Shown: positions 1,651-21,881 of the stretch, piece by piece
How positions within the stretch are numbered: position 1 is the first letter of the stretch
How the letters are laid out: each line of letters opens with the position of its first letter
Assembly (NCBI GenBank): GCA_965221125.1
Contig: CBDCRW010000007.1
Span: 32,001 to 96,000 of the forward strand
Direction of reading: 5' to 3'
DNA from: Alphaproteobacteria bacterium
GTDB taxonomy: Bacteria > Pseudomonadota > Alphaproteobacteria > UBA828
DNA: 64,000 nt
Program-made: the position numbers and the translations under genes
Notes under the pieces: model-generated
What the model was told of the DNA's origin: nothing
The model's database searches: none
Seen by the model: the letters and a program-made list of their open reading frames with translations, nothing else

Positions 1651-2565
1651 TCAGACCGGTACGACCATCACGGGAATGCCCAAGCGCTTCGCCTTGTCGA
1701 CGAGGTTGCCGGTGATTCCGCTACCGGGGAATGCGATGACGCCCTTGGGCAGCAGGTTGAGCAGGTCGTCGTTGCGGCGGAAGGGCGCGGCCTTGCCGTG
1801 GGCGTTCCAGTCGGGGCGGCAGACGACCTGATTGACGCCTCTGGCCTCGGCCCAGCTCGCTGCGATCTTCTCGACGCCGGGGCCGCCGCCGTGGACCAGC
1901 ACCATGTCGCCGTGCTTCGCGCGGGCCATGTCGAGCGTGCTCCAGACCGTGTCGGCGTCGGCGACGGTCTTGCCGCCGGTGATCGCGACCAGGGTGCCCT
2001 CGGGCAGATGCGCCCGGGTCTCGCGGTCCTTGCGGGCTCTGCGGAAGTCGCGGGCATCGATGGCGGCAGAGGTGAGCGTTCCGGTGCGGCTCGTGTGCGA
2101 GCCGTGGCGCGGGCGCCATGTGTCGCCGGTCTCAGCACGGTAGGCATCGGCTGCGATGTCGCGCATCTTCTCGAAGGCATCGCGCCTGTCGCCGAGGCTC
2201 TGCGCCCGGTCGGTGAGGGTCTGCAGCTCCCACGCCTTCACCTCCGATCCATCCTGCGCCTTCTCGAGGTCGCGCATCTCGGGAGTGATGCGGTCGACGG
2301 CACGGTCGAGCCTCTGCACCTGGCTGTGCAGCATGTTGGTGAAGCCCCACATCAGGGGCTCGCGCTCGTCGGCCATCTGGGTGCCGTCGACGGTGACGCC
2401 GTCCACGATGACGCGGATGGCCTCGCTCAGTGCATCGATGGCATCGTCTTCGTCCCAGACGACGCGGCTGTCGAGCTCGCCGCGCTCCGGTGCGGCGCCG
2501 TAGAGGGCCATGCTCTCGCAAACGGTGGCAGTTGCAGACGCGGTAGCGGTTGCGGTGTCGATCAT
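1651..2565 (-). CDS. DUF2493 / YspA-like SLOG domain protein of plasmid/ICE backbones
   Basis: C-terminal LVAITGG...LVHGGGPGVEKIAASWAEARGV...AAPFRRND...VIAFPGSGITGNLVDKAKRLGIPV. Confidence 0.8.
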   Translation of the reverse strand: MIDTATATASATATVCESMALYGAAPERGELDSRVVWDEDDAIDALSEAIRVIVDGVTVDGTQMADEREPLMWGFTNMLHSQVQRLDRAVDRITPEMRDLEKAQDGSEVKAWELQTLTDRAQSLGDRRDAFEKMRDIAADAYRAETGDTWRPRHGSHTSRTGTLTSAAIDARDFRRARKDRETRAHLPEGTLVAITGGKTVADADTVWSTLDMARAKHGDMVLVHGGGPGVEKIAASWAEARGVNQVVCRPDWNAHGKAAPFRRNDDLLNLLPKGVIAFPGSGITGNLVDKAKRLGIPVMVVPV

Positions 2566-2955
2566 GACGATCTCCCTTGTTCATCCACCGGGACCCTGTG
2601 CCCCGTCGTGGTGTCCTCCTTCTTCACGCGCGCGCAGTGTCAGCACCTGGCCTTAGGAACTGTTGGGCGGGGTGGTGCGGAAGTTCGGCGATGGTGCGGA
2701 AGATGGCGCCGACGTGCCGGTGGGAACGGTGCTCCGCAGCAAATCCATTCCAGTGGTCATTGCGGCGCCGGGCCGGGCGGGCCCGCTTGGGCCTGCCCGG
2801 CGTCTAGGCGCCGCTATGAATGGTTCCGCGAATGGATTTGAAGCGGTGCAGCGTGACGCGGCGGCCCCGCGCGAGGGGCCGGCGCGCTGCGAGACGAGGC
2901 GGTTGGCGATTACACGCAAGCCATCTTCACGGTCGCCGAACTTCACGGCCCGCCC

Positions 2956-4137
2956 TTACAGTTCCTTGGGCCAGGCCGCAGGGAGCGGAGCGACCGGAGG
3001 ACCCGGAGGGTTGCTGGTGCGAGCACGCGTGACAGAATTGGAGGACACGACGGAAGAGGCTTCCATTTCGGCACGCAAGGCCTCCTCTGTTTCTTTGTTG
3101 CCCGCGGGCACGGTCCCGCCGGTGCAGACCAGGGGCGCGATGCGTGCGGCCAGGGCATGCGGACCAAGGGTCACAATGTCTTCGTTGAAGTCGCCGGTCT
3201 GGGAGACGATGACGGCGCACTCGATGCGCAGAGCAAAACATCGCCGACGCAGTCGAAGCGCAGCGCGCTCGCCCGCCTCGTCGTTGTCGCAGACCACGAC
3301 GAGACGGGCGATGCCCGTTGGCGGCGTGAAGGCACCGAGCCCACCGGCCGAGAGCGCGGCAGCGGCGGTGACGGTCGGCACGGCGGTAACGATGGAGAGC
3401 ATCGTCTCGATGCCCTCCCCCACCAGCAGCGTGCCGGTGCTGGGGTCGCCAAAGCGGACGGCATGGCCGTGGACACGGCCGAGCGCCTTGCGCGGGAACG
3501 ACACGTCTGCCTTCGCGGGATGTCTGGGATCGAGCCATGTCCGATGCACGCCGACGATGGCGCCGTGAGCGGTCTGCTCGCCTGGACCGGAGTGTTCCTC
3601 CGGACCGGGGTGTTTCCCCGCGTCGGCGGTGACGGCGGCGACGAGGGCCGGCAGGCGACGCATGCCGCCGCCGTCGCGGTAGAAGAGTTCCGGGTGGAAG
3701 CGCAGCGCGGGGAAGCGGCAGCGGTGGATGGCACGGGCCCTGAGGTACGCCTCGGCATGCGTGCCGTCGATGGCGCGGCAGCGCCGCCAAAGGCGGCGCG
3801 CCGCCTCGCTGGAGTCGTAGGCCCCGTCCGAGGCCGCTGCCGGCACAGCCGGCAAGGCGAGGAAGGCGCGGGCCTCGGCCATGGCGTCGCGGAGCGGCAC
3901 GTCGCCCATGCGGTGGCGGATGAGGTCGAGGAGATCGCCATGGGTTCCCTCGGCGGAGTCGGTCCACTTGCCGGGGACGCCGGGAGGCGTGAGACGGACG
4001 AAGAGCGAGCGCCCGCGGGCACCGTGAATGTCGCCGGCGGTCCAGTACCTGCCCTGCCTGCGCCCGTGGGGCAGGTAGGCGCGGCAGACCTCCTCGGCGC
4101 GCTCGCCGAGGGCCTTGGCGATCCGGGTGGCGTTCAT
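2956..4137 (-). CDS. Toprim-domain primase-like protein (DUF7146-type)
   Basis: EVCRAYLPHGRRQGRYWTAGD N-terminus; GVHRTWL, LLVGEGIETMLS and VVVCDNDEAG toprim motifs; start chosen at MNATRIA. Confidence 0.8.
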   Translation of the reverse strand: MNATRIAKALGERAEEVCRAYLPHGRRQGRYWTAGDIHGARGRSLFVRLTPPGVPGKWTDSAEGTHGDLLDLIRHRMGDVPLRDAMAEARAFLALPAVPAAASDGAYDSSEAARRLWRRCRAIDGTHAEAYLRARAIHRCRFPALRFHPELFYRDGGGMRRLPALVAAVTADAGKHPGPEEHSGPGEQTAHGAIVGVHRTWLDPRHPAKADVSFPRKALGRVHGHAVRFGDPSTGTLLVGEGIETMLSIVTAVPTVTAAAALSAGGLGAFTPPTGIARLVVVCDNDEAGERAALRLRRRCFALRIECAVIVSQTGDFNEDIVTLGPHALAARIAPLVCTGGTVPAGNKETEEALRAEMEASSVVSSNSVTRARTSNPPGPPVAPLPAAWPKEL

Positions 4138-4350
4138 GGGGCTCCCCCGCTCCGTCCAGAGAGTGCCCGCGTTCCGGCCGGTCTCGGGCTCTCGGCGGCG
4201 CGCGGGCGGCGGGGAGGCGCGCCGCGCACCCGCGCCGCTGCCCGGCGGGACGGGGCTCTGGTCGTGCTGCATGGAAACGGGGGCACGCGCACGCGCCGGT
4301 CATCGGCGCAGGCGCGGCCCCCAGGGTGCCGGAGGACGGTGGTGGTACTG

Positions 4351-4665
4351 TCAGGCGGCCATGTGCTGCTGCGCCCGCCAGGCGGGATGCACCATCGGCA
4401 TCGCGGGCGCAAGATCACGGTCGACGAGCAGCTCGGCCACTGTCGCGCGCACGGCGCGCGCATCCTCGACTGCCACGGGTCCTGCGGCATCGTCGTAGAG
4501 GTGCACGTAGAAGACCCCGTGATCCGGGGTGGTATAGGCGGGCCGCTTCATGACGGTGCCAACGGTCTCGCCGTCTGCAACGACGAGCCACTCGTCATCG
4601 CCGCATGAGCGGAAGGCGATGTCGTCGGCGGTGAGGCTGTAGCCGGACATGGCGGGACTTCCCAT
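4351..4665 (-). CDS. Hypothetical protein
   Basis: Normal-composition ORF co-oriented with backbone genes. Confidence 0.55.
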   Translation of the reverse strand: MGSPAMSGYSLTADDIAFRSCGDDEWLVVADGETVGTVMKRPAYTTPDHGVFYVHLYDDAAGPVAVEDARAVRATVAELLVDRDLAPAMPMVHPAWRAQQHMAA

Positions 4666-4808
4666 GAAAGGGGCGCGCGGCGGCGCCCGGAGGGCGCCTG
4701 CCTTGCGCGAGGGTTGAAGGGGAAGGGGCCGTGCTCCGCGCGGCAGATGACGCGGAACACGGCCCCTCGGGGAGCGGGCGGGAGGTCACCCGCTGCGAGG
4801 ATGGGCAG

Positions 4809-4832
4809 CTTAGAATGGTTATGGGAAGTTGG
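4809..4832. repeat. Left att-like end (core CTTAGAATGG plus arm TTATGGGAAGTTGG)
   Basis: Matches core at 16427-16436; arm is inverted relative to 16417-16430. Confidence 0.65.
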
Positions 4833-5011
4833 ACCGTGTAACGTTTGAGTGAGTGGTTTGATTCACAACGATCTTTTGGTGTTCCGGTGCCCTTCCGTGC
4901 GGATCTCTTGTAAACAATGCCGCCGAGATTGGCCCGATATGGGCGACATTGTTTACACTTTTGTCGTCGGCACCCGATGCGAGGCCAGGAAGGACGGGCC
5001 GACGCGCGAAG

Positions 5012-5105
5012 TGCCGAATCTCACGAAAGTAGCCACCCAATCTCAGGCAAAGTAGCCACCGAATCTCATCGAAAGTAGCCACCCAGTCTCACCAAAGTAG
5101 CCACC
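5012..5105 (+). repeat. IS21 left end: four ~23-24-bp repeats (ATCTCA..AAAGTAGCCAC)
   Basis: Seen directly; inverted counterparts at 7726-7821. Confidence 0.9.
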
Positions 5106-5187
5106 CCCTCGGGGCGGCGGCTTTTGGAGCGACTCAGAGCGCCGTCCTACCCGTCGGATTTCGCGATTCATCCGAGGGGGGGCTGGG

Positions 5188-6723
5188 ATGGCACGGGGAA
5201 GGCTGCCGATGAGAAAGGTGAAGAAGGTTCTTGGGTTCCATTTCGAGGAGGGACGTAGCGCCCGCGCGATCGCAACCCACTGCGGTATGGCGCGTCGCTC
5301 GGTGGCGTCGGTCTTGGAGCGCTTCGCGGCATCTGGTCTGAGTTGGCCGGAAGCCGGCGACATGGCCGACGAGGCGCTGGAGGCGACACTGTTTCCGGCG
5401 CCCACGCAAGCCGCGCCGCAGCAGCAGGAGGTGGACTGGGCGAAGGTCGAGACGGACCTGTCCGAGCCGGGCGTGACCCTGAAACTACTGTGGGAGGAAT
5501 GGCGCGAGACCCATCCCGGCGGCATGAGCTATCCGACCTGGTGCCGCCGCTTCCGCGAGTGGCGGCCGCGCCGGGACGCGACGATGCGCCAGAACCGCCG
5601 TCCCGGCGAGAGGCTGTTCGTCGATTACGCCGGCATGACGATCCCGATCATGATCGACGGGGGCGAGCACGAGGCGCAGGTGTTCGTGGCCTCGATGGGC
5701 GTCTCGGGGCGGCTCTACGCCGAGGCGACGCTCAGCCAGAAGATCGAGGACTGGTGCGCCTCGCACGTGCGCTGCTTCGAGGATATGGGCTGCGTGCCGC
5801 AGGTCGTGGTGCCCGACAACATCAAGCCGGCGGTGATCAAGCCCTCGCGCTACGAGCCGGTCCTCAACGAGACCTACGCCGATCTGCTCGACCACTATGA
5901 CGTTCGGGGCTTCCCGGCGCGCGTGAAGAAGCCGCGCGACAAGGCCCTGGTCGAGAACGGCGTGCTCCAGGGCGAGCGCTGGATCCTGGCGCCCCTGCGC
6001 AAGCGCGTCTTCCATGACCTGGCGTCGGCAAACCGGGAGATCGGCGAGCAGGTCAGGAAGATCAACAGCCGGCCCTATGCCGACGGCACCGGCGAGAACC
6101 GCTACGGCCGCTTCGAGAGCGTCGACCTCCCCCACATGAAGCCGCTGCCGAAGCGGCGGTGGCAACGCACGGTATGGCGCAAGAACACGGTCCACCGCGA
6201 TTATCACATCGCCATCGATTACCACTTCTACTCGGTGCCTCACGAGCTCATCGGCAAGGAGGTCGACGTCCGCCTGCGCGACAACCTGATCGATGTCTTC
6301 GTTCGGGGCCGGCACGTCGCCAGCCATATCCGCAGCTCAGCCAGGGGCCGCGCCACCACCGTCGAAGAGCACAAACCGAAGGCGCACCAACGCGCCGGCG
6401 TCGAGGCCACCCGCGCCCACCTGGAGAAGAGCGCGCGCGATATCGGGCCCCATGTCCACGCCTACGTCGTCGTGCTCATGAAGCGGCAGAACAATCCGGA
6501 GTTCGGCTTCCGTGCCTGCTACGGCGTCCTCCGGCTGGCCAAAAGCTACGAGCAGGACCGCTTCGACGGCGCCTGCCGCTACGCGCTCGAGCTCGGCACG
6601 CGGAGCTACCGCGGGCTCGAGAACATCCTGCGCACCGGCGCCGACCGCGTCGACGCCGAGCAGGAACCCGACACCATGCCCATCGATCATTCCAACATCA
6701 GAGGACCGGAGGCCTACCGATGA
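5188..6723 (+). CDS. istA: IS21 transposase IstA
   Basis: N-terminal HTH, PGERLFVDYAG, VVPDNIK, KPRDKALVENGV DDE motifs. Confidence 0.95.
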   Translation: MARGRLPMRKVKKVLGFHFEEGRSARAIATHCGMARRSVASVLERFAASGLSWPEAGDMADEALEATLFPAPTQAAPQQQEVDWAKVETDLSEPGVTLKLLWEEWRETHPGGMSYPTWCRRFREWRPRRDATMRQNRRPGERLFVDYAGMTIPIMIDGGEHEAQVFVASMGVSGRLYAEATLSQKIEDWCASHVRCFEDMGCVPQVVVPDNIKPAVIKPSRYEPVLNETYADLLDHYDVRGFPARVKKPRDKALVENGVLQGERWILAPLRKRVFHDLASANREIGEQVRKINSRPYADGTGENRYGRFESVDLPHMKPLPKRRWQRTVWRKNTVHRDYHIAIDYHFYSVPHELIGKEVDVRLRDNLIDVFVRGRHVASHIRSSARGRATTVEEHKPKAHQRAGVEATRAHLEKSARDIGPHVHAYVVVLMKRQNNPEFGFRACYGVLRLAKSYEQDRFDGACRYALELGTRSYRGLENILRTGADRVDAEQEPDTMPIDHSNIRGPEAYR

Positions 6724-7481
6724 CCGAAAACCCCGTCTCCCACCCGCTGGCCGAGCGCATCGCCTCGCTGCGCCTGCCAGGCATGCACGCCGCCTTCCTC
6801 GAGCAGGTGGCGCGCAACGATCTCGGCGACATGCCCTTCGAGGATCGGCTCGCGCTGCTGATCGACCGCGAGATCGCAGAGCGCCGTTCCAGGGCCCTGC
6901 AGCGGCGCCTCAAGAGGGCACAGCTGCGCCATCAGGACGCCTGCTTCGAGGATATCAACCTGAGCCGCCCGCGCGGCCTCGACCGCAGCCTCGTGCTCGG
7001 CCTCGCAGACTGCGCCTGGGTCCGCAACGGCGCCAACATCCTGGTCACGGGTCCGTGCGGCACGGGCAAGAGTTGGATCTCGTGCGCCCTCGGCCACAAG
7101 GCGTGCCTCGAGGGTCACATCGCCCAGTACCACCGCGTGCCCAGGCTACTCACCGAGCTGCGCATCGCCCATGGCGAGGGCACGATCCCGAAGCTCTACC
7201 GCGATCTCGCCCGCATCGCGGTGCTGATCCTTGACGATTGGGGCATCGCGCCCATCGATGCGGCTCGCGCGCGCGATCTCCTCGAAATCCTCGACGACCG
7301 CTTCGGCCGGCGCTCGGTGATCGTCACCAGCCAGTTGCCCGTGGCCGACTGGCACCGCCAGCTCAACGACCCCACCGTCGCTGACGCCATCCTCGACCGC
7401 CTCGTCCACGGCGCCATCCGCATCGAGCTGCACGGCACGTCCATGCGCATCGACGACGCTGCCGCCGGAACAAAGGCATGA
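6720..7481 (+). CDS. istB: IS21 ATPase IstB
   Basis: ATGA overlap with istA; Walker A GPCGTGKS, VLILDDWG, ADAILDRLVH. Confidence 0.95.
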   Translation: MTENPVSHPLAERIASLRLPGMHAAFLEQVARNDLGDMPFEDRLALLIDREIAERRSRALQRRLKRAQLRHQDACFEDINLSRPRGLDRSLVLGLADCAWVRNGANILVTGPCGTGKSWISCALGHKACLEGHIAQYHRVPRLLTELRIAHGEGTIPKLYRDLARIAVLILDDWGIAPIDAARARDLLEILDDRFGRRSVIVTSQLPVADWHRQLNDPTVADAILDRLVHGAIRIELHGTSMRIDDAAAGTKA

Positions 7482-7725
7482 GCGCGACTACAGAGCGCCG
7501 CGCTGCGCGCGGCGCGAACGTCGCTCCGCTCCGGGGCGTCGGAGAGGCGGGGCCGGTGGTGCCAGGCATGGTGCGCGCGCGCCGCCAGACTCGTGAGGGG
7601 TCTCACGCGTCGCGCGCGCACCATGCTCCACCGCCTTGCCACTGTGCCTTCGGCGGTGGTACCGATCACGGAGAACTCGCGGAAGGAGAACCGCTGACAA
7701 CAACGTAACCGCGTCGCTTCGCTCC

Positions 7726-7821
7726 GGGGTGGCTACTTTGCTGAGATTGAGTGGCTACTTTGGATGAGATTCGCCGGCTACTTCGGGTGAGATTCACCGG
7801 CTACATTGGTGAGACTGGGCA
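7726..7821 (-). repeat. IS21 right end: four inverted repeats
   Basis: GGCTACTT..TGAGA(T/C)T units, reverse complement of left-end units. Confidence 0.9.
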
Positions 7822-7862
7822 CGAAGCGCCGGCCCGATCGGGAGTAGACGGCGATCATGCTC

Positions 7863-8282
7863 CTAGAACGGCGAATCGGAGGCATGGCCGGCTTCTGCCG
7901 GCCGGCGGTCGTCCTGGGTGGCGGCGGTGCCGTTGGTGCGCTCGAGGAACTGGATCCGCGAACCGGGCACCAGCAGGATCTCGGTGGAGAAGCGGTCGCT
8001 GTCCTCGCCCTCCTTCCGCCACCTGCGCGTCTGGAGCTTGCCGCTGACGTAGACCAGGCGACCCTTCTTCGCGTGCTTTTCGAGCATGCCGATGAGCCCG
8101 TCCTGGAAGGTCACCGCCTTGTGCCATTCCACGCGATCGACGCGCTCGCCGGTCTTGTCGATGTACCCCTCGTCGGTCGCCACGCTCATATTGGCGACGC
8201 GCCCGCCGGACGTGAGATTGGTGATGGTCGCATCGGCGCCCAAGCGTCCGATGAGCTCAGCCCTGTTCATCCCGAAGCTCAT
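7863..8282 (-). CDS. ssb: Single-stranded DNA-binding protein (element-borne copy)
   Basis: MSFGMNRAELIGRLGAD...EWHK...KKGRLVYVSGKLQTRRW...SPF C-terminus. Confidence 0.92.
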   Translation of the reverse strand: MSFGMNRAELIGRLGADATITNLTSGGRVANMSVATDEGYIDKTGERVDRVEWHKAVTFQDGLIGMLEKHAKKGRLVYVSGKLQTRRWRKEGEDSDRFSTEILLVPGSRIQFLERTNGTAATQDDRRPAEAGHASDSPF

Positions 8283-8586
8283 GATCGTCTCCTGTTCATC
8301 CGAGTTTCTGACGATGGTTGCGGAACGAAGCGGGCCGGGGGATCTCTCTCCCCGCCCTTCTCCGTTCATCCTCCTCCAGCCACTCTCCACCTCTGCCAGG
8401 CCCGGCGCCCCGGTGGCCGACAGGTAGCCGACGGCTTCACGGATCGCACGCGACGAGAGGCCGGCTGCGGCCGGGCGTGCGCCGGCATTGGAAGCCGCCA
8501 GGGCGCAGTTTTGATCAGGGGGGCGCGGGATGGGGGCGATCAGGGCGCGATGGGGCCAGCCGGCAGGCGGGTGTCGCTGAACGAGG

Positions 8587-10566
8587 TCATTGCCCGATCG
8601 ATCTCAAGCGCGACGCCAGGGTGATGTCGCGCTTCAGATTCCTTGGCGCCGTTGCGACGGCAGCGTCGAAGACGTTTCGGTCTCCGACGAAGACGACCTG
8701 CTCCGAGGCCCGCGTGGCCGCGGTGTAGATCAGCGTTCTGTCGAGGATCCTGGACCGGTAGACGGGCACGATCACCAGGGGCCACTGCGAGCCCTGCGCC
8801 TTGTGCACGGAGATCGCGTAGGCGAGCTCGATGTTGGTGGCGTCGGCGGCGCCCAGCCGGTGCTCCTGGCTGTCGATGACCGCCGTCGCATGGTCCCGGT
8901 GCGCTTCGACGATACGGCCGGTGGAGCCGTTCATGAGGTCGCGCTCGTAGTCGTTGCGGGTCCAGATGACGGGATCGCCTTCGGCGATGTCGGCACGGCC
9001 GGGAACGAGACGGGGGGTATGGGCGCTGCCCTGCATCCGCAGTTCGTGGAACCGGCGGTTGATGGCGAGGATGCCCGCCGGTCCTGCGTTGACCGGCGCG
9101 ACGATCTGAGCGTCGCCCCGGCGCAATCCGTTCTTGGCGAGCCGCGCGCCGGCATCGAAGATGACGTCGAACGCCTCCTCCGGGGCGGCGTCGATGAACG
9201 TCACCCCCGGCGCCAGGCCGCGGAAGGGGCCGAGCTCCGGGCGGCGGCCGTTGCGAATGGCCTCGGCCACGACCGGTATCCCGGTCTCGGCCGATTGACG
9301 CATCACGCGGTCGAGGACGGTCTTCGGGATGGCGGGATGTTCGATGAGCACGTGGAAGGTCAGGCCGAAGCCGATGGGCGGAAGCTGCGCGGGATCGCCG
9401 ACGAGAACGAGGGAGGCGTCCCCGATGCGTCTCACCACCTGCCAGAGCAGGGGAAGGTCGACCATGGACGCCTCGTCGACGATGACGATGTTGCCTGCAT
9501 GCAAGCGCGCACCCGCGCCGCCGGAGGTCTCCTTGAGGAAGCGGGCGATCGTCATCGCGGGGCGCCCCGCCGATTGGGCCATGCGCTGCGCCGCGCGGCC
9601 CGAGAGCGCGATGAGCACGGTGTCGCGGCCGAAGCGTTCCGCCAGCTCGCAGATGCCGCGCAGGGACGTGGTCTTGCCGGAGCCGGCATAGCCGCCCAGC
9701 ACCGACAGCCGGTGCCGGAAGGCGCCCGCGATGGCGGCTTTCTGCGGGCCCGTGAGGCGGTGCGGCCGGCGGCGTTCATACTCGTCAACGGCGTGCCCGA
9801 TCTCCTCGCCGGCAACAGCTGGCAAGGCCAGGTCGGACGCCGGAACTTCGGCGGCGAAGCGTGCGAGCTCTTCGGCAAGGAAGGCCTCCATGGCGGCCGC
9901 GCCCATGGGCTGAACGCCGTCCTCGAAGGGCTCGGCGCCGCCGGCTTCGACGGCGCTCTCGACCGCCCAGGGTCCGGCAGGGCTGCCGTCCGGAGCCGCT
10001 ACGCCGGTGAGCAGCTTCGCGGCCCCGGCCTCTGCCGAGGCGCGGGACGTCCATGTATGGTTCCGGTCGAGGCGGCGGTAGAGGGTGGCCTCGACGGCGG
10101 CGACGGCGCGGCGGGGATCGTCGGGCGCGACGCCGAGAGCGCGGCAGACCCTGTCGGTTGCAGGCCAGGGCAGGAAGCTCGCGAGGAGGTAGGGATTGTC
10201 CTTCAGGGCGTCGATGCCGTCATGGCCCCAGCAGCGGGCGATCCTGATCGCGGTACGCGTCCCGACAGCGGGGGCGACCCCCCGGCTTTCCAGCCAGTCG
10301 AGAAGCTCGATCTCGGGGCTCTTCAACTCGTAGGCCGCGAACGCGTTGGTGGCGGTTTCCTCGCCGAGGATGGCGGTGACCTCGGGATGTTTCCGGTCGA
10401 GCGCGTTACGCAGGCCGTCGCCGAATGCGGCTGCCAGGGCAGCGGCCTTCGCGGGGCCGATGCCGCGGAAGTCCCGGTCCTCGGCAAGGTACGCCGCGAG
10501 CGCGCCGGGCCTTCGCGGCATCGGGGCCTCGACGGCGGCACGGGCGGCTGCGCCCGGCCGGCTCAT
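8587..10566 (-). CDS. RecD2-like SF1B helicase
   Basis: HhH (RGIGPAKA), NPY motif, Walker A GYAGSGKTT, IVDEASMV, GDPAQLPPIG, AYAISVHKAQGSQW, LIYTAATRA. Confidence 0.9.
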   Translation of the reverse strand: MSRPGAAARAAVEAPMPRRPGALAAYLAEDRDFRGIGPAKAAALAAAFGDGLRNALDRKHPEVTAILGEETATNAFAAYELKSPEIELLDWLESRGVAPAVGTRTAIRIARCWGHDGIDALKDNPYLLASFLPWPATDRVCRALGVAPDDPRRAVAAVEATLYRRLDRNHTWTSRASAEAGAAKLLTGVAAPDGSPAGPWAVESAVEAGGAEPFEDGVQPMGAAAMEAFLAEELARFAAEVPASDLALPAVAGEEIGHAVDEYERRRPHRLTGPQKAAIAGAFRHRLSVLGGYAGSGKTTSLRGICELAERFGRDTVLIALSGRAAQRMAQSAGRPAMTIARFLKETSGGAGARLHAGNIVIVDEASMVDLPLLWQVVRRIGDASLVLVGDPAQLPPIGFGLTFHVLIEHPAIPKTVLDRVMRQSAETGIPVVAEAIRNGRRPELGPFRGLAPGVTFIDAAPEEAFDVIFDAGARLAKNGLRRGDAQIVAPVNAGPAGILAINRRFHELRMQGSAHTPRLVPGRADIAEGDPVIWTRNDYERDLMNGSTGRIVEAHRDHATAVIDSQEHRLGAADATNIELAYAISVHKAQGSQWPLVIVPVYRSRILDRTLIYTAATRASEQVVFVGDRNVFDAAVATAPRNLKRDITLASRLRSIGQ

Positions 10567-11102
10567 TCGGACGTCTCGTCGAGCTGAAGGCGGCTCTGTC
10601 CGGGGCCGGAGTTCTCTTTCTCCGGCGGCCTGGGCCTGTAGCGGCGACCGGCGGCGATCAGCGCTTGATCGGTAGCCTCATAGCGCCTCAGGCGGGCGAT
10701 GAGCGCCGCGTTCCTGGCGACCAGCTCGCTGACGCGGCGCTCGGCGGCCGCGCTGCGCCGCTGTTCCTCGCGCAGGCGGGAGGCCGGCACCATGGCCTCC
10801 CCGCCGGCGTCGCCCGGCGCCTCGACAGCTCCCGTGGTCTGGCGGTCGTGCACGGAGGGCGGCGATCCTCTGGCGGAGAAGGCCACGCCCTTCCGGCCGG
10901 CGTAGTCCTTGAGCATGGCGCGGAAGGACGGGTTCTGCGTCACCGTCGACCGGCCAACCCCGACCAGCTGGCAGATCTTCGCCAGATGGAGAGCCCGGCC
11001 GTTCATGGGCAAGGTCTCGCCGGCCGCCTCGCGCGCGTCGATCTCTTCGCGCAGGCGCAGCACCGCCTGCCGGCCGCGTTCCGCGCCGCTGCCCCTGCTC
11101 AT
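10563..11102 (-). CDS. Hypothetical protein with putative HTH and coiled coil
   Basis: LAKICQLVGVGRSTVTQNP HTH-like segment; start/stop overlaps with both neighbours. Confidence 0.7.
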   Translation of the reverse strand: MSRGSGAERGRQAVLRLREEIDAREAAGETLPMNGRALHLAKICQLVGVGRSTVTQNPSFRAMLKDYAGRKGVAFSARGSPPSVHDRQTTGAVEAPGDAGGEAMVPASRLREEQRRSAAAERRVSELVARNAALIARLRRYEATDQALIAAGRRYRPRPPEKENSGPGQSRLQLDETSE

Positions 11103-11518
11103 GCGTCATGCTCGCTATATTCTCGATCGACCGGCTGAAGCGGAGCGTCCAGCCGATGGTCGGGAATGCCGAGAACGTGCGTGTTGTAGGCCCAGACGGC
11201 GAACCGGGTCATCATCGCCTCGTTCTCGGCGCGAAGCCGGCAGAGGTCCGCTTCCAGGGAATCGATGCGCTCGAGGAGGGCCGCTTCGGTGTCGGTCTTC
11301 GGTCTCGGCCGCCGCCCCGCCCCGCTGCCCCTGAGTTGCTCCCTGCGGGCCGCGAGCGCCGTCCTTATCCGTTCATGCCTGGACAGCGCCTGGCGCGAGT
11401 AGGCGTGGCCGAGCCGTCGCCGCGCCAGCCTCACGACCGCGCCCCACGTGGCCACCTCGAGCGTGCCGATGGTCCTGGCGAGCGTTTCGACGTTGGTCTC
11501 GGTGAGGTGCCGGGCCAT
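11099..11518 (-). CDS. Small recombinase-associated protein (TnpC/auxiliary-like, coiled coil)
   Basis: MARHLTE...YSRQALSRHERI...LLERIDSLEADLCRLRAENEAM...WAYN; directly downstream of third recombinase. Confidence 0.7.
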   Translation of the reverse strand: MARHLTETNVETLARTIGTLEVATWGAVVRLARRRLGHAYSRQALSRHERIRTALAARREQLRGSGAGRRPRPKTDTEAALLERIDSLEADLCRLRAENEAMMTRFAVWAYNTHVLGIPDHRLDAPLQPVDREYSEHDA

Positions 11519-11519
11519 G

Positions 11520-13574
11520 TCACGGTTTCCGTAGCCGGGGTAAGGAATCGGGAGCCGGGCCGGGGCCGGGCAGGGCTTTCGCCGAACCGGCCCCGTCGCC
11601 GCCGATCGCATAGCGTGCCGCGCCGTCGAGCCTCAGGACGGCGCCCGGCGCGATCGCCGCGTCGTCGATCAGGGCGACGAGCTCGCGCAGGCGCGCAAGC
11701 TCGGTCCTCTTGCGGGAGAGCCAGATCTCCGAGTTGCCTTCGCCGATAGCTGCGGCCTCTTCCGCGGACGCGACAGCTTTCTGGATGACGGCTAGGCGGT
11801 CGCGCAGGGCGCGCTCGGCGCGCTCGTCTCCCTTGACGCAGGCGTGCTCGACGCAGTTCAGGCAGTCCCGGTACATCGGGCAGGGCGACGCCGCAAAGTC
11901 GTGCAGGCAGGCGCCGTAACGCGTCAGATGCACCCCGGCGAGACTGCCCTCGATCAGCTGCCGCGGGGTCACCGGCCGCTGAGGGGTTGCCGTCATCGGG
12001 CTGCCGAAGATGTCCCCGCCGAGAGAGCGCGCCTTGGAGACGAGGGAATCGGCGGTTTCGTGGTCGTAGTACGCGTTGTGCCGGATGTCCTTGCGGCCCG
12101 CCCATCTCGCGATGTCGAGCTGCGACAGGTTCCCCTCGTTCGCCAGCGTGGTCATGTAGTGGCGCAGCTGGTGAGGCGTGATGCGGACGGTCTCGCCATC
12201 GTCGTCCACCAGCCCGAGACGGCCGAACAATCCAGCCTTTTGATCGCTCGTGCAGTCTCTCCCGTTCATGGTGTTCTTGATCTCGCTGGTCGAGACGCAG
12301 GAAAGGCGCCAGAAGAGAGTGCACGATTGCCGGGCCATGTCAGCGGTGCGTACGAGCAGCGCGCGGTCGTATCCGAGGCCGGATCTGGGATCGGCCAGCG
12401 GGAAGCCTTGCGGGAGCTCCGCCCGAAAGCCTTCTTCGATCGGCGCGCGGAGATAAAGCTTGGCGTTCATTGCGAGCTTGACGCCCAGCTGTGTTGCGTG
12501 GTCCGCGCGAACATCGAATCCGTTTCTGCGCAGCGCGACAAGCACGGTCCTCGGATCGGCGGCCGTTCCGAGACTCCTCATGCTGATGTAGCCCTCGCGG
12601 GCGAGAGGATCGTCCGGGGCGTCGCCCGGGAGGATGTCCTCGCCGGCCATGTACCTGCGCGCAAGCGCGCGGGCGGGCTCGGTGACGTCTCGAATGCGCT
12701 TCAGCGCGTCCCTCGCCAGCGGCACGAACGCGCTCGGGATCCAGCGCGTCTCGGGCTCGCCGCCCTTCGACGGATACCAGCGCAGGCCGTAGCGGTCCTT
12801 GCCGCTCTCGACGGCCTCCACTTCGCAATCGTAGGCGTCGAGCCGGTGCAGCTCGGAGATGCGGCTGTGCGTCACCAGGAGAAGGGCGTATGCGGAAGCG
12901 GCAATCACGTCCATTGGATGCTCGGCGCGGCGGTATGCCTCTCCGAGCGCGGCAAGCGCGCGTTCCGAGGGAAGTTTCCGGGCCCGAGCCCGCTCGCGTT
13001 CGACGCCGATGCGATCGAAGCTCGTCGGCCGCCTGATGGGGCAGGTCCAGACGAGAGGCCGCGCGACGAGGCCGTGATGGTCGAGAAAGCCGGCGATCGC
13101 TTGAAGCTGCAGGCCGACGCGATACGCAGTGTGGCGGCTGTAAGCAGAGCGAGAGGCCGCGGCGGCGGCGTTGAAGTCGTCGGGCCGCGCGTCGGCAATC
13201 GATTTGCCAGCTTCGGCGAGAGTCTTGTCGAGATGCCGCATCGCCGAGAGCATCAGCTGAGGGGCCATCTGTGGGGCAAGACCATACCTGTAGCGCAGGT
13301 ACGCCTTGAAGAAGTCGGCGTTGCGGGCGCCGAACGGCGCGTAGTGCTCGATCGACCTTGGCGCTTTCTTCAGGGGATGACCCCAGTTGAGGCGAAGCAC
13401 GCTCTTGCTGCGGCCCGACACAGTGGCAACTCCGCGCAGCTCCCATCTCGGCGCGTCCCAGTCGAGCTCGGCGCCGAACACCGTGAGGTCGTCGCGCGCA
13501 TGACGGATGAACTCGGCGAGCCTCGCTTCGGCATCGAGCGCCTCCGCCGGCCGGAAGAGCGCGAGCTCAGCCAT
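11520..13574 (-). CDS. Large tyrosine recombinase (third of trio)
   Basis: THSRISEL (R), TPHQLRHY (HxxR), WAGRKDIRHNAYYDH (Y), C-terminal Cys cluster GACLHDFAASPCPMYRDCLNCVEH; start at MAELALF overlapping upstream stop. Confidence 0.85.
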   Translation of the reverse strand: MAELALFRPAEALDAEARLAEFIRHARDDLTVFGAELDWDAPRWELRGVATVSGRSKSVLRLNWGHPLKKAPRSIEHYAPFGARNADFFKAYLRYRYGLAPQMAPQLMLSAMRHLDKTLAEAGKSIADARPDDFNAAAAASRSAYSRHTAYRVGLQLQAIAGFLDHHGLVARPLVWTCPIRRPTSFDRIGVERERARARKLPSERALAALGEAYRRAEHPMDVIAASAYALLLVTHSRISELHRLDAYDCEVEAVESGKDRYGLRWYPSKGGEPETRWIPSAFVPLARDALKRIRDVTEPARALARRYMAGEDILPGDAPDDPLAREGYISMRSLGTAADPRTVLVALRRNGFDVRADHATQLGVKLAMNAKLYLRAPIEEGFRAELPQGFPLADPRSGLGYDRALLVRTADMARQSCTLFWRLSCVSTSEIKNTMNGRDCTSDQKAGLFGRLGLVDDDGETVRITPHQLRHYMTTLANEGNLSQLDIARWAGRKDIRHNAYYDHETADSLVSKARSLGGDIFGSPMTATPQRPVTPRQLIEGSLAGVHLTRYGACLHDFAASPCPMYRDCLNCVEHACVKGDERAERALRDRLAVIQKAVASAEEAAAIGEGNSEIWLSRKRTELARLRELVALIDDAAIAPGAVLRLDGAARYAIGGDGAGSAKALPGPGPAPDSLPRLRKP

Positions 13575-15054
13575 GAGCCACCCCCGTCCGCATCGCGCGG
13601 CAACGATCGGCGACCTCCGCGACGGCCATGATGGTTGCGTCGTTGGCGGCGGCCACCTGCGGGGAGATCCCGTCCGCGAGAAGCGTCCTGCGCTCCTCGA
13701 CCAGGGACTGCAGCAGATCCTCGTGAGGCGCGTCACGCCAGGGACGGAACGCGGCGCAGGTGTAGCATGCAAGCGGCGCCAGACGGACACAGCTGCGCGG
13801 GCCCGCGCAGGTTCCCACGCCTCCGCCGGCGGCGGACGCAACGCGACGCGACGGCGCTTCCCCGGCGCCGGATTCGACCTCGCCCGCAACGATCGTGCCC
13901 CTGAACAGCCCGGCCAGCGGCTCCGCCCGGCCATGAAGGGCGGCGTCCATGCGGTCCTGGATCGAGCCGCGCGACTCCACATACACGCCGACGTGCTGGA
14001 GGTCGGTGTGATCGAGAAGGTGAGCGATCAGAACAGGAGGGTGACCCACATCGGCAGCACGCGTCCCGAGAGTGCTCCGGAACCGCCGGGGCGCCAGGTT
14101 GATCGGAGCGGCAGTGCGCGCCGACCGAAGGCCGAGCGCGCTCTGGATGCGCCTCAGAGCGCGGCCGGCACCGCCCCTGCCGATGTGTGCCTCCGCGAGC
14201 GATGCGAAGGCGGTCGCCTCGACGGCAAAGATCGGACGCCGGTCGACCGGAATGCCCCGGAAGCGCTCGTCGCGGGATCGCTCCTCGACGAGTTCCCTAA
14301 GCAGAACGGCAAGCTCGCCAGGGATGACCCGCTCGCGCGTGAGGCGCTTCGGCGTCCTCTTCTTGAGAGACGGCACCAGGAGGCGAGATGCGGCCGATCC
14401 CGGTGCAGGCGGAACCAGATCGCCACAAGTCAGCATCGACAGCTGGCCGGGCCGGGCCCCCGTTGCGGTCAGCGTGAGAAGAATGCCGAAGTCCTGCCTG
14501 CTCACGCGGCCCTCGCCATACGCCTCGCGTGCCGCAAGGGTGATGCTCTGCAACTCCACATCGGTGAAGGGACCCTTCGTGGGGTGGTGCGTGCGGACGG
14601 CGGCGCCCTTGACGTTCCCGGGTATCTTGATGCTGCTGAAGAACTGCAGCACGTCGCGGTCGACCCCGGCGTAGCCGCGTGCGACCCAGAACTTCAGGAA
14701 CGCCGCGACGTGGCCCAGATAGTGCAGTTGCTCGCGAGCGAGCAGCGACCGGTAGTCCATGAGAGCCGCCGCAGAGATGGTGGCGCCGACCGGGACATCC
14801 CGCGCCATTCTTGCGAGGGCCTGGACGCCCCCCAACACGGTGTCGGGGGAGCGATCTTCCATGTAGGCAAGGGCAGCCTGCTTGACGTTGTCGGCGTGCC
14901 CGGCGCCCCAATGATCTCGTATCGGCTTGAAGGAGATGCGGGTCACGCCCTTCTCCAGCACGATCTTCCAGACGTCGCCGCCGGAATCGAATCCCGCATG
15001 GATGCCGCGCTCTCGCGGAGCGCCGGCAGGCTGCAATCCGCCCGGACTACTCAC
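13567..15054 (-). CDS. Tyrosine recombinase (second of trio)
   Basis: TGARPGQL, APRRFRSTLGT (HxxR variant), LLDHTDLQHVGVY, C-terminal C..C...CYTC..F zinc-like motif. Confidence 0.85.
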   Translation of the reverse strand: MSSPGGLQPAGAPRERGIHAGFDSGGDVWKIVLEKGVTRISFKPIRDHWGAGHADNVKQAALAYMEDRSPDTVLGGVQALARMARDVPVGATISAAALMDYRSLLAREQLHYLGHVAAFLKFWVARGYAGVDRDVLQFFSSIKIPGNVKGAAVRTHHPTKGPFTDVELQSITLAAREAYGEGRVSRQDFGILLTLTATGARPGQLSMLTCGDLVPPAPGSAASRLLVPSLKKRTPKRLTRERVIPGELAVLLRELVEERSRDERFRGIPVDRRPIFAVEATAFASLAEAHIGRGGAGRALRRIQSALGLRSARTAAPINLAPRRFRSTLGTRAADVGHPPVLIAHLLDHTDLQHVGVYVESRGSIQDRMDAALHGRAEPLAGLFRGTIVAGEVESGAGEAPSRRVASAAGGGVGTCAGPRSCVRLAPLACYTCAAFRPWRDAPHEDLLQSLVEERRTLLADGISPQVAAANDATIMAVAEVADRCRAMRTGVAHG

Positions 15055-16291
15055 CCTCGAACAATCCCTGGTGCATGCCTCTCAGGGCGGCCTCGGCCGC
15101 CCGTTCGACGTGACGGTGCGTGTAGACCGCCGCCATCTTCGAATCCGGACTCCATCCCATCAGGAAGTTGCGGATGCGCTCCTCGCTCGCCTCGGGGGTG
15201 CGATCGCCACGCTCCGCCCTGCCGTCGATCGCGGCCGAGAACCTGTCGTTCCAGGTGTGGCGCAACAGGTGAGGATGGAGACGGAAGCCGAGAACGCTTT
15301 CGAGCGCAGCGAAGACGTTGCCCACGCTTCTCGGGGTCAACGGCGCTCCCGGCCTGATTCCTGCATGGGACACGAAGACATAGGCGTGCATCCGGGCGCC
15401 GGGTTCGGTCCGGCGCCAATCCGACAGGTAGGCGAAGAGGATGTCCGCCAGCTCCGGCCTGATCGGCACGGGCCGTGCGCCGGACTTGGTCTTCGGCTTC
15501 TGCCGACGAGGGTCCCGGGGGTCCGGAGGGCGCCGATGGATCGAGATCGTCAGTTTCCTGAAGTCGATGTCCGGGATCTTCAGGCCGCAAAGCTCGCCCC
15601 TGCGCATGCCGGTCTCGTCAAGGCAGGCAACAACGGCAAGGTTGCGATAGCGAACCGCCTCGCTCCGGAACGGGTTTTCCGGCGAGGACGGATCGATGAC
15701 GGCGAACAGCCGGTCGCGCTGTTCCGGCGACAGGCCCTTCCTGGGCTCGGACGGTTGACGCGCGCCCACCTTCGCCCGGGCGGTCAGAGCCTTGACGGTG
15801 TCGCGAAGGAGCTGCTGCGATCCGGCGGCACGGCTGTGGCTTGCAAGCCAGTCGAGATAGGCAGCGACGGACCGCACACGGTTGGCTCCGGTCTGGGGGT
15901 CCAGCATCTCATCGCAGTCGTGGGGAAGGTGCCGATGAAGCTCCTTGCCCGATCTGGAAAGCGGCAGGACATTGGCTTGGTGGGGACGCTCGGTCCGATC
16001 CGGAACCCGGGCGGTCTTCAGCGCATGGGAAAGACTCTCGACCTCCCGCAGCTCCAGACCGGCGCCCGTGGCCATGCGTGCTTCGAGGGAGAGCCCGTTC
16101 GAGTGCGCCCACACCCGGGCCGCCGCGATCGCGCGCATGTGCGCCTCGATCGTGTTCTCGGCGCGGCCGGCGTTTCTGAGAATGGAGACCGCATACCGTA
16201 TCGGCTCGGGCGCGGGGGCCGAGCCGGGCTCGACCAGGGCGGGGAGCGTCTCGCCGCCGGGAAGTCTGATTCTGCGGACGCTCTCGGGCAT
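15047..16291 (-). CDS. Tyrosine recombinase (first of trio)
   Basis: ETGMRRGELCGL, KTKSGAR, HPHLLRHTWN, LMGWSPDSKMAAVY. Confidence 0.9.
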   Translation of the reverse strand: MPESVRRIRLPGGETLPALVEPGSAPAPEPIRYAVSILRNAGRAENTIEAHMRAIAAARVWAHSNGLSLEARMATGAGLELREVESLSHALKTARVPDRTERPHQANVLPLSRSGKELHRHLPHDCDEMLDPQTGANRVRSVAAYLDWLASHSRAAGSQQLLRDTVKALTARAKVGARQPSEPRKGLSPEQRDRLFAVIDPSSPENPFRSEAVRYRNLAVVACLDETGMRRGELCGLKIPDIDFRKLTISIHRRPPDPRDPRRQKPKTKSGARPVPIRPELADILFAYLSDWRRTEPGARMHAYVFVSHAGIRPGAPLTPRSVGNVFAALESVLGFRLHPHLLRHTWNDRFSAAIDGRAERGDRTPEASEERIRNFLMGWSPDSKMAAVYTHRHVERAAEAALRGMHQGLFEGE

Positions 16292-16416
16292 CGAAAGTTT
16301 ACGCTCTTGCCTTGTTCCGGCTTACCTAGAATTGCGACTCCAAACGTGTCAATCATGAAATTCAACAAAAAATGAAAGCCCGCAAGGTGTTACCCCTGCG
16401 AGCTTTACATTTCTAC

Positions 16417-16436
16417 CTAACTTCCCCTTAGAATGG
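16417..16436. repeat. Right att-like end (arm CTAACTTCCC plus core CTTAGAATGG)
   Basis: AT-rich stretch upstream of first recombinase ending in the direct repeat that includes the ssb TAA. Confidence 0.65.
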
Positions 16437-16877
16437 GAACGGCTGGCCCGAATTTTCGCCGTTCGCGGCCGCCGGCGCGTCCTCACCGTTGGCCGGCGCG
16501 GCGCCGTTGCCGTTGGTGCCGGCAGGCTTGTCCAAAAGCTGCACGCGCCCACCGGGAACGAGCAGGATCTCGGTCGAAAACCGATCCGAGTCCTCGCCGT
16601 CCTTGCGCCACTTCCTGGTCTGCATCTTGCCCGAGACGTAGATCAGCCGGCCCTTCTTCGCGTGCTTCGCCAGCATATCGATCAGCCCGTCCTGGAAGGT
16701 GACGACGCGATGCCACTCTGTCTTGTCGATCCGCTCGCCGCCTGCACGCCTGTCGATGTACGACTCGTCGGTGGCGATGCTCATGTTGGCGACGCGCCCG
16801 CCGGAGGCGAGGCTGTTGATGGTGACGTCCGCACCCAGGCGGCCAATGACTTCTGCGCGGTTCAGTCCGAAACTCAT
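16428..16877 (-). CDS. ssb: Single-stranded DNA-binding protein (backbone copy, insertion target)
   Basis: MSFGLNRAEVIGRLGAD...TEWHRVV...GKMQTRKW...PFPF. Confidence 0.93.
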   Translation of the reverse strand: MSFGLNRAEVIGRLGADVTINSLASGGRVANMSIATDESYIDRRAGGERIDKTEWHRVVTFQDGLIDMLAKHAKKGRLIYVSGKMQTRKWRKDGEDSDRFSTEILLVPGGRVQLLDKPAGTNGNGAAPANGEDAPAAANGENSGQPFPF

Positions 16878-17123
16878 CTTCGTGCTCCTTCACGTGCGAG
16901 TTCTGACGATGGTTGACGAACGGATCGGACCGCTCTCTCGCGACCTCCTCCGTTCACCCTCCTTCAAGCTCTCCCTTCCCTCTCGCCTGCGGCCTGATCC
17001 GGCGGTGGCCGGCTTCCCGAGGGCCCCGCGGACCGCACGGCCGCCGCGGCGCCGACGCCGATCCTGGATCGGGAAGTTGCCGAACGACCTGGCCCACGGC
17101 ATCTGTCTGGGGCAAGGCCGCAC

Positions 17124-17930: not shown

Positions 17931-17945
17931 GGCCGGCCACCCCTG

Positions 17946-18269
17946 TCAGCGCGCGTAGCGGGTGGTCAGCAAGCCTGTGGCTTGGGTCCCCCACATCTGC
18001 ACGCCGGAGCGAGCCAGCTTGACCCCCGTGCAGACGATGATTTCGTTGGGCGCAGGCCGCATCTCCCGGACCGCTTTGCGCGAAACGATCTTCCTGCGCG
18101 GCTTGCCCCGGCCCTTCGTCCTGGGCCGCTCCGCCTGGACAGGCTCGATCTCGCCGTTGGGATGGGAGCGGTACTTCTCGACCACGTAGCGCTCGTCGTC
18201 GAGGCCTCTGCCGAACAGGTGCACCAGAAAGGTCTGCGCGTCGCGATGGAATATTCGGTCGGTCCGCAT
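17946..18269 (-). CDS. Hypothetical protein
   Basis: MRTDRIFHRD... segment of longer ORF; start and reality uncertain. Confidence 0.3.
   Translation of the reverse strand: MRTDRIFHRDAQTFLVHLFGRGLDDERYVVEKYRSHPNGEIEPVQAERPRTKGRGKPRRKIVSRKAVREMRPAPNEIIVCTGVKLARSGVQMWGTQATGLLTTRYAR

Positions 18270-18619: not shown

Positions 18620-21881
<3,262 letters not shown>

Follow-up and report, generated by a model that had tools for sequence, protein, structure and literature searches.

What kind of element ends exactly at the stop codon of an ssb gene, and how could it come to lie there without altering the protein? The question is raised by a 64-kb stretch of an alphaproteobacterial genome bin (92% complete, 5.8% contamination; G000:C7:32001-96000, hereafter the window, in which all positions given without a contig are counted), where positions 4809 to 16436 hold a three-recombinase element that stands between an ssb gene and its backbone neighbors. 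A sequence-only reading had described a mobile, site-specific element of several recombinases that inserts at the ssb stop codon and leaves the protein intact, and in this it was right, as five copies in the genome, their junctions and empty sites attest. It had further taken the element to be a relative of RIT (recombinase-in-trio) elements, Tn554 and strand-biased circularizing elements (SEs), a view that gives way here to another assignment, since the architecture matches the published GInt family instead. We are highly confident that the element is a GInt-type (Genomic Island with three Integrases; Tn6571-family) site-specific integrative element. It is a new member of a known family on that family's known preferred target and not a new kind of element; with GInt insertion at the end of ssb published in 2017 (Bardaji et al., 2017; PMC5385486), the main point made here has been reported before. 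Its interest lies in a clean natural dissection of the att site, a multi-copy state, a lineage-specific helicase and SSB cargo, and support for hopping between vehicles.

A recombinase operon next to ssb

In the available parts of the defining paper, to which our statements about it are confined throughout, GInts carry three tyrosine-recombinase-type genes and one for a small protein (ginABCD) as an operon at the 5′ end, followed by cargo and a short AT-rich 3′ end (Bardaji et al., 2017; PMC5385486). The element follows this plan on the minus strand, and we base GInt membership on three things: the architecture, the published targets that it shares, and its homology with cassettes of the same genera. 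The target gene, ssb1 (16428-16877), encodes a 149-aa protein that ends PFPF-TAA (Pfam SSB, E=2.8e-22). From its stop it is 136 nt to the start of int1 in the ginA position (15047-16291; 414 aa), a tyrosine recombinase (Pfam Phage_integrase, E=1.9e-14) with the conserved pattern R...K...HxxRH...W...Y in the alignment. In the ginB position int2 (13567-15054; 495 aa) encodes an integrase that scores 355 bits against NCBIfam NF041502 integrase_1 (cut-off 350), and in the ginC position int3 (11520-13574; 684 aa) encodes a large tyrosine-recombinase-fold protein with a C-terminal Cys/His-rich motif. The small fourth gene, orf4 (11099-11518; 139 aa), is ginD-like and follows int3 in most related loci. 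All three recombinase-fold proteins match Pfam Phage_integrase, int2 and int3 with scores below the gathering score, and all three retain the Arg, HxxR-type and Tyr positions in our alignments. The C-termini of int2 (G.C.....C...P.ACYtC) and int3 (H.T..G.C.HD....PC....DC.nC) are conserved and rich in Cys and His, which suggests putative zinc-binding modules appended to the recombinase folds.

Downstream, the operon continues with orf5 (10563-11102, minus strand; 179 aa), which is restricted to close alphaproteobacterial relatives, and with a RecD2-like SF1B helicase (8587-10566, minus strand; 659 aa; Pfam AAA_30, E=1.2e-39, with UvrD_C_2 and HHH_RecD2). The six genes are tightly packed: int1/int2 and int2/int3 overlap by 8 nt each, orf4/orf5 and orf5/helicase by 4 nt (ATGA), and a 1-nt spacing separates the int3 stop from the orf4 start. 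The translationally coupled operon int1-int2-int3-orf4-orf5-recD2 that had been read from the sequence is thereby confirmed, with its last product called RecD2-like; the helicase reaches 338 bits against NCBIfam helicase_RecD2, below the cut-off of 500. A sigma-70 scan upstream of int1 returned no promoter-like site. The last gene of the element is ssb2 (7863-8273, minus strand), a complete SSB gene of its own (136 aa, ending DSPF-TAG; Pfam SSB, E=2.1e-21), from which it is 233 bp to the distal end when an inserted insertion sequence (IS) is discounted. The distal end itself is non-coding and AT-richer, with 46% GC in its last 100 bp (4819-4918) versus 68% in the window. The GInt plan thus recurs: a coupled ginABCD-type operon (414, 495, 684 and 139 aa) with conserved synteny, then cargo after the ginD position (orf5, helicase, ssb2), then an AT-rich distal end.

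The cargo offers few other clues. No Pfam or PADLOC match was obtained for orf5, which has a weak hit, below cut-off, to the NCBIfam VPA1267_fam model, the Vibrio "VPA1267 family" (E=1.1e-7). PADLOC likewise returned no match for orf4 or ssb2, and matched the helicase to RecD-type models of several candidate systems; we see no case for reading the cargo as a defense system.

Three adjacent tyrosine-recombinase-fold genes would also be expected of an RIT element. An RIT element has long inverted repeats at its ends, three recombinases that are modest and roughly alike in size and, to our knowledge, no conserved small fourth gene. Here the recombinases measure 414, 495 and 684 aa and are accompanied by a conserved 139-aa fourth gene. 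Among the 25 longest inverted repeats (at least 29 nt), none spans the element termini, which carry short imperfect ones, and the only long one belongs to an IS21-family insertion inside the element; an RIT element is accordingly about the least credible identity for this locus.

A profile of int3 homologues, run against species-representative genomes, returned 63 loci in Alpha-, Beta- and Gammaproteobacteria and in Acidobacteria and Gemmatimonadota metagenome-assembled genomes (MAGs), and most of them conserve the order int1-int2-int3-orf4. Full-length identities of 22-35%, together with synteny, tie the element to cassettes in Pseudomonas, Stutzerimonas, Acinetobacter and E. coli that lie at the end of ssb or of nrdA. 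With nine loci set aside for want of int1 and nine for too little upstream sequence, 45 could be evaluated; in 27 an ssb gene lies upstream of int1, and in 26 of these it ends in PF-stop (the tail at L040 is doubtful). The gap between ssb and int1 is 134-153 nt in 20 of the ssb-adjacent loci. The expectation that homologous trios would sit at ssb 3′ ends thus held for these 27 loci and failed for the other 18. Among nine close relatives (L016-L024), eight encode the RecD2-like helicase and five a distal ssb (L017, L018, L020, L022 and L024), so that the alphaproteobacterial lineage keeps a conserved cargo.

Attachment site, crossover and a probable terminator

The window holds exactly two copies of CTTAGAATGG, at 4809-4818 and 16427-16436, and none of 100 dinucleotide-preserving shuffles contained as many. 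Read on the minus strand, the right copy is CCA TTC TAA G, the Pro-Phe-stop of the 149-aa SSB, which bears out the proposal that a 10-bp direct repeat brackets the unit and that its right copy is the end of ssb. An alignment of the four site pairs in the genome separates what the element brings from what the target supplies. On the ssb side the order is element...AACTTCCC, CTTA, GAA N GG, target, where N is T, G, C and A at the four sites and the bases beyond belong to the particular ssb. The distal order is target, then CTTA, CCTA, ATCA or ACTA, then GAA N GG (N being T, C, T and C), then TTATGGGAAGTT...element, with invariant TTAT following the spacer. Because CTTA is invariant on the ssb side of all four sites while the distal stop triplet varies (TTA, CTA, TCA, CTA), we take the four nucleotides that hold the stop codon to come from the element at the ssb junction and from the target at the distal one. 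With TTAT owned by the element and CTTA switching owner, exchange would therefore be confined to the 6 bp GAANGG (CCN TTC, Pro-Phe), and the crossover region, as deduced from these junctions, is the pair of Pro-Phe codons at the conserved C-terminal tip of SSB.

In the window, the distal junction (4809-4818) consists of target-derived CTTA (4809-4812) and the 6-bp crossover spacer GAATGG (4813-4818), followed by a terminal inverted repeat (4819-4846; TTATGGGAAGTTGG...TGTAAC) that is identical in all five copies. At the proximal end, a terminal inverted repeat plus CTTA (16399-16430; ...TTTACA...CCTAACTTCCC) supplies the element-borne TAA that ssb1 now uses, and the spacer GAATGG (16431-16436) is CCA TTC, the Pro-Phe codons of ssb1. 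The perfect 10-bp repeat is thus the 6-bp spacer plus four bases that happen to be equal in target and element; the repeat matches at 10 of 10 positions in the window and is imperfect, in a hybrid element/target pattern, at the other three sites. Imperfect inverted arms of 12 bp, complementary at 10 of 12 positions, flank the spacer at both element ends, and about 20 bp further inward comes another inverted motif, TGTAA. That only six of the ten repeat bases take part in the crossover had escaped the sequence-only reading, as had ssb2, the IS21 insertion and the other copies in the genome.

After insertion, ssb keeps its own Pro-Phe codons and reads the element-borne TAA, so that the SSB protein is unchanged, and the original stops (TAA, TAG, TGA and TAG at the four sites) are stranded at the far junction. 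The published family behaves alike. GInts are flanked by imperfect hybrid repeats of 10-17 nt with staggered cuts of about 6 nt and spacer variants, and 6 of 11 analyzed GInts lie at the end of ssb with its product unaltered, this being the target that unrelated GInts favor (Bardaji et al., 2017; PMC5385486). Hybrid repeats, an apparent 6-nt exchange with spacer variants and an ssb-end target with an unaltered product are all found here.

The spacer itself varies. Its variable base differs between the two junctions at three of the four sites, and two distal values occur among otherwise identical copies; the spacer carried by the element may therefore have been inherited from earlier sites or have arisen from heteroduplex resolution. 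In a genome of the same genus that holds two of the related loci, the spacer at the distal junction of L020 (CCCTTC) is the one that L024 carries at its proximal junction; a search with the inverted arm and CCNTT[CT] located the distal end in only these 2 of the 27 ssb-adjacent loci. An order of transposition cannot be read from the spacers, an idea that we rejected since all four possible variants occur as proximal spacers.

Such junctions invite comparison with SEs, for which a one-strand copy-out circle is proposed that keeps the 6 bp of the target proximally, leaves the 6 bp of the previous site distally and produces no empty donor. The pattern here fits the "fingerprint/footprint" rule given in the available text on SEs (PMC10214605): proximal spacers follow the target, distal ones differ at three of four sites with two values among identical copies, and the L020 and L024 spacers correspond. 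A rise in copy number, as that route would give, is implied by the five identical copies, and the weak VPA1267 match of orf5, below cut-off though it is, points the same way. The footprint test has little force here, however, as all four N values occur as proximal spacers, and the heteroduplex model of Bardaji et al. explains variable spacers equally well (PMC5385486); non-restoring excision is raised in both papers, in the parts available (PMC5385486; PMC10214605). The genes agree less well, since SEs are described as running intA-tfp-intB-srap, the second protein exceeding 550 aa and lacking RHRY (PMC10214605), whereas the second protein here has 495 aa, passes integrase_1 and keeps the R/R/H/Y positions. 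The tfp-srap blocks of SEs are reported only from Gammaproteobacteria, and the close relatives here are alphaproteobacterial. Finally, an empty allele of this very site was recovered from another metagenome (below), although that site may never have been occupied. We consider it improbable that the element is an SE, and read it as a GInt in what follows.

Besides a stop codon, the element seems to supply ssb with a terminator, as judged from predicted folding. A hairpin with a 13-bp stem and a T-run (16365-16406, minus strand) begins 21 nt past the new ssb stop, within the element; its minimum free energy is -32.5 kcal/mol (z=-5.8), and 0 of 200 shuffles were as stable. Across 26 related loci, the first 80 nt past the ssb stop reach z<=-3 in 20, the T-run starts at 55-57 nt in 20, and 17 combine both. 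The ssb-targeting relatives (L017-L068) share a proximal layout of TGTAAA(C/T) about 20 nt in, a GC-rich hairpin, a T-run and often inverted TTGTTTACA, and in many of the related loci the hairpin is bracketed by inverted TGTAAAC motifs. Hairpin and T-run would end ssb transcription and insulate the int operon. Neither this hairpin nor the Pro-Phe reading of the spacer was found in the Results and Discussion of the GInt paper, its supplementary tables aside (PMC5385486). An element that brings its own stop codon and, probably, a terminator leaves its target gene intact, and the genome offers a natural experiment, with one element, four sites and unoccupied paralogous sites, in which the probable crossover is pinned to codons kept by selection on SSB.

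Copies, empty sites and vehicles

The genome contains five full copies of the element, each 8,793 bp between the inverted ends, with no mismatch in any pair; with the stop codon and one spacer, and without the IS, the element measures about 8.8 kb. Four distinct flanks are represented (C7, C2, C4:642-651k and C5:57-66k), and against those of the window the flanks of the other contexts reach only 71-91% identity. The fifth copy (C7:1-12427) lies within an inverted segmental duplication of window positions 678-17242 and is not an independent insertion. This duplication, of about 13.7 kb (C7:1-13750 against C7:32678-49242), spans the element, ssb1 and backbone genes; C4:1-4420 equals window positions 14581-19000, so that two contigs start inside it, and it may be real, or two haplotypes may have been left unresolved in the assembly. 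That one genome holds five identical copies indicates a very recent spread with a gain in copy number. A multi-copy state recurs in this genus lineage: 4 of 20 other species representatives of the genus carry the element in 1-3 copies, and in G009, G019 and the genome of L020 and L024 (OY763937.1) two or three copies lie at different ssb genes. Among 20 genomes examined from other genera, none carries it.

The window copy exceeds the others by 2,815 bp, which is an IS21-family IS (5012-7821, plus strand; istA 5188-6723, istB 6720-7481) and its target duplication of 5 bp (CGAAG, at 5007-5011 and 7822-7826). The assignment rests on Pfam IstB_IS21 (E=1.1e-64), Mu-transpos_C_2 and terminal inverted repeats of 104 nt. 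It is a secondary insertion into the non-coding distal part, present in the window copy alone of the five; a second, identical IS copy lies at C3:6368-9178 of the same genome, and the IS-less joint 5006->7822 is found in contigs of runs X18-X20, which stem from one sample, possibly that from which the genome was assembled. In the same three runs the element forms one variant-free unitig of 8,802 bp with ends at 4817 and 16433, which agrees with a true identity of the copies.

Unoccupied counterparts are at hand as well. Three ssb ends in paralogous backbones are free of the element (C5:723302, C4:982540 and C4:32297). In the backbone at C5:721359-726146, ssb (from 722856, stop 723300-723302) is followed directly by the homologue of window positions 4801..2001 at 90.7% identity, and this paralogue confirms that removal of the element joins ssb to the hypothetical, Toprim and DUF2493 (YAcAr) genes of the backbone, as had been foreseen. 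The joined flanks, which had been proposed as a probe for an empty allele, were found in run X1, a sponge metagenome from another study, where one contig joins 4808->16427 with 10 letters that fit both sides; this joint is, to judge by its sequence, the empty allele of the window site. Taken from these comparisons, the element is a discrete and apparently recently active mobile unit.

These data bear on the possibility that the trio is a fixed accessory module of a plasmid- or ICE-like backbone (ICE, integrative and conjugative element), moved only by homologous recombination or gene conversion, with the 10-bp repeat incidental. All copies in the genome do adjoin the same kind of backbone genes, and the ssb genes flanking and inside the element offer homology for recombination. 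Identity nevertheless falls from 100% to 71-91% exactly at both ends in four contexts, the junction bases change in the order expected of site-specific exchange, and relatives occupy unrelated loci that share only an ssb tail (uvrA-ssb, a prophage, IncF and IncN plasmids). Constant end points and the unrelated loci of relatives already contradict such a module, and we assign it next to no weight.

The backbone around the window element consists of a Cys-rich 268-aa protein, ssb, a hypothetical protein, a DUF7146-Toprim protein and a YAcAr-domain protein. Homologues of the Toprim protein occur on 398 plasmids, 217 of them predicted to be conjugative, and VirD4-like genes lie 30-57 kb from copies of the element. 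Besides the ssb2 copies, the genome holds at least seven ssb genes of this one plasmid- or ICE-like backbone type, with 64-100% protein identity to ssb1 (C2:27912, C4:1851, C4:32397, C4:651343, C4:982097, C5:722856, C7:366 and C7:48431). Further out, directly beyond the Cys-rich gene upstream of ssb1, window positions 18620-21881 encode, by translation only, a LysR-type regulator and a KatG-like catalase-peroxidase (an ORF of 804 aa), a stretch that is either chromosomal DNA or cargo of the backbone.

Had the element been specialised for the ssb genes of conjugative elements, as first proposed, its relatives should be found there. They are found more widely. A divergent uvrA stands near ssb in 17 of the 27 ssb-adjacent loci (UvrA domains were confirmed for three), which is the housekeeping arrangement, and one locus, L020, is a prophage-type ERF-YqaJ-ssb module; the second copy in that genome, L024, lies at uvrA-ssb. 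In the genome studied here, tblastn with a relative's UvrA gave no match, and the assembly seems to lack the housekeeping uvrA-ssb locus. Since all ssb paralogues share the Pro-Phe-stop, the element can land at ssb genes of chromosomal, prophage, plasmid and ICE type alike. Hitch-hiking, which remains reasonable in view of some plasmid and ICE-like sites, is hence a consequence of a motif common to all ssb paralogues, and the proposed specialisation falls.

Plasmids bear this out. Homologues of int3 were matched on 67 plasmid records, 33 predicted to be conjugative, 9 mobilizable and 25 non-mobilizable, and the sites of relatives include IncF and IncN plasmids. Six plasmids were opened, one of them unannotated; ssb lies directly upstream of the cassette in four of the five annotated ones, namely the IncF plasmid pEQ011 of E. 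coli, whose cargo is Avs4, pKPC-4b66 of K. oxytoca, pTROUS1 of P. aeruginosa, with a type ISP restriction enzyme, and pCuR of X. citri, with a type I restriction system. The fifth, pCF39S (L084) of P. aeruginosa, has no ssb upstream; its cassette is of a more distant four-gene type, with an int3 25.7% identical, and lies between genes annotated aph(6)-Id and aph(3'')-Ib. Among 5,426 complete E. coli genomes, 380 hold the cassette DNA of pEQ011 at 80% identity or more, at 376 places on chromosomes and 30 on plasmids, and 363 of the 395 matching records reach at least 99% identity; this frequency is near the 7.5% of Escherichia replicons in which GInts are reported in the literature available to us. 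In both chromosomal records inspected the cassette lies at the end of the uvrA-adjacent ssb1, and its protein accessions are identical to those of pEQ011. The avs4 cassette thus appears at chromosomal uvrA-ssb1, that of an ST131 strain included, as well as next to an IncF plasmid's ssb (L079, which is pEQ011, L085 and L086).

How might such movement proceed? The three recombinase-fold proteins and the small fourth protein would excise the element to a circle and integrate it through 6-nt staggered cuts, as Pseudomonas GInts do. The spacer at the far junction need not match that of the target. For those GInts, excision to a circle, a requirement for all four genes and heteroduplex resolution are described (Bardaji et al., 2017; PMC5385486). 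The gain in copy number would call for a replicative route, and copy-out may be more likely than plain cut-and-paste. Lacking transfer genes, the element would ride on vehicles by way of ssb landing sites. We tentatively entertain a bolder scenario, more doubtful than the family assignment, in which the Pro-Phe spacer makes every ssb paralogue an attB, the island hops from the chromosome to any vehicle, and the copies arise in vivo by replicative copy-out, possibly aided by the RecD2-like helicase and SSB. GInts carry defense, resistance and virulence cargo, and how they move between cells was left open by the defining paper in 2017 (PMC5385486); vehicle hopping, if true, answers that question, and together with the data on the E. 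coli chromosome and IncF plasmids the present locus supports a simple hitch-hiking route. In the literature, we found nothing on a link between GInts, ssb and plasmids or hitch-hiking beyond what the available parts of the papers cited here hold, of which the supplementary tables (e.g. Table S3 of PMC5385486) may list plasmid-borne ssb sites.

Family assignment and comparison with known systems

Several observations weigh against an active GInt that moves in this way. (i) No circle junction (right end to left end) was present among the Logan contigs of four runs, a source in which rare forms are dropped. (ii) The five copies could in principle derive from co-binned strains, and their identity may partly reflect consensus polishing. 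(iii) Pfam CagE_TrbE_VirB, TraI_2 and Relaxase are unmatched in the 92% complete genome, and AAA_10 has one match, at an unrelated place; with no VirB4 or relaxase found by the three families, we call the backbone plasmid- or ICE-like only and not a proven ICE. (iv) In 18 of the 45 evaluable loci no ssb lies within 1.5 kb, and ssb targeting is therefore a property of a large clade and not of all relatives. One of the 18, L064 (Stutzerimonas), lies at the end of nrdA, for ribonucleotide reductase alpha, which is another published target, that of P. aeruginosa GInts (PMC5385486). (v) The reference GinA-D proteins are known here by description, so that homology to the type elements is indirect. 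(vi) At least 90% of 54 aligned int3 sequences retain R...HxxRH...Y, whereas the published GinC, in the text available, is without part of the catalytic motif; in a PDB profile search with the int3 family, the sole recombinase match was an archaeal Xer-like protein (E=0.16), too weak a match to speak to the catalytic residues. (vii) One of the four sites is not at an intact ssb: three have intact ssb tails, and the ssb-side flank of the C5 site is only a 20-codon ORF ending GGFPF-TAA.

The C5 remnant, for which no 5′ part of ssb was found upstream, does end in PF-stop. An IS110-family element of 1,646 bp (C5:55454-57099; about 8455-10100 in L007) ends some 20 bp from the ssb-side junction, and at least five other copies of it, 98-99.9% identical, lie elsewhere in the genome (C5:80640, C5:718249, C2:65623, C6:485352 and C4:447960). 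We infer that the remnant reflects a later rearrangement of a former ssb site.

Among known systems, GInts come closest. The element shares with them three recombinase-fold genes and a small protein gene at one end, cargo, an AT-richer distal end, short imperfect hybrid repeats, a 6-nt exchange region and insertion at the end of ssb without change to the product. It departs from the reported GInts in its close relatives, which are alphaproteobacterial MAGs (a 2020 RefSeq survey, in the part available, gives ginC-ginD blocks as absent from Alphaproteobacteria), in its conserved cargo of orf5, RecD2-like helicase and own ssb, and in an int3 that appears to keep R/HxxR/Y. Five identical copies in one genome also set it apart from reported GInts and SEs alike, which mostly have one or two. 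Another close counterpart is the E. coli Avs4 cassette (NZ_CP086342.1; pEQ011, NC_023315.1), from a host in which GInts are described, in the available text, as Tn6571-family transposons that carry defense systems (Hochhauser et al., 2023; PMC10121019). It has the same layout, with proteins of 415, 512, 677 and 139 aa starting 158 nt past ssb, and its int3 is 30% and its orf4, over full length, 36% identical to those of the element; it differs in its anti-phage Avs4 cargo, in place of helicase and ssb, and in its enterobacterial host. With SEs, as far as their 2023 description was available, the element has in common that one end carries several recombinase-fold genes together with one for a small protein, that its terminal inverted repeats are short and imperfect, that the 6-bp spacer has a different origin at each junction, and that targets are few and selected and transfer genes absent (PMC10214605); it differs in gene order, catalytic status of the second protein and reported hosts. 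Tn554 (TnpA, TnpB, TnpC) stands further off, with two recombinase-fold genes against three here, Firmicutes hosts and a different target; the Tn554 family was dropped as a candidate on its two recombinases.

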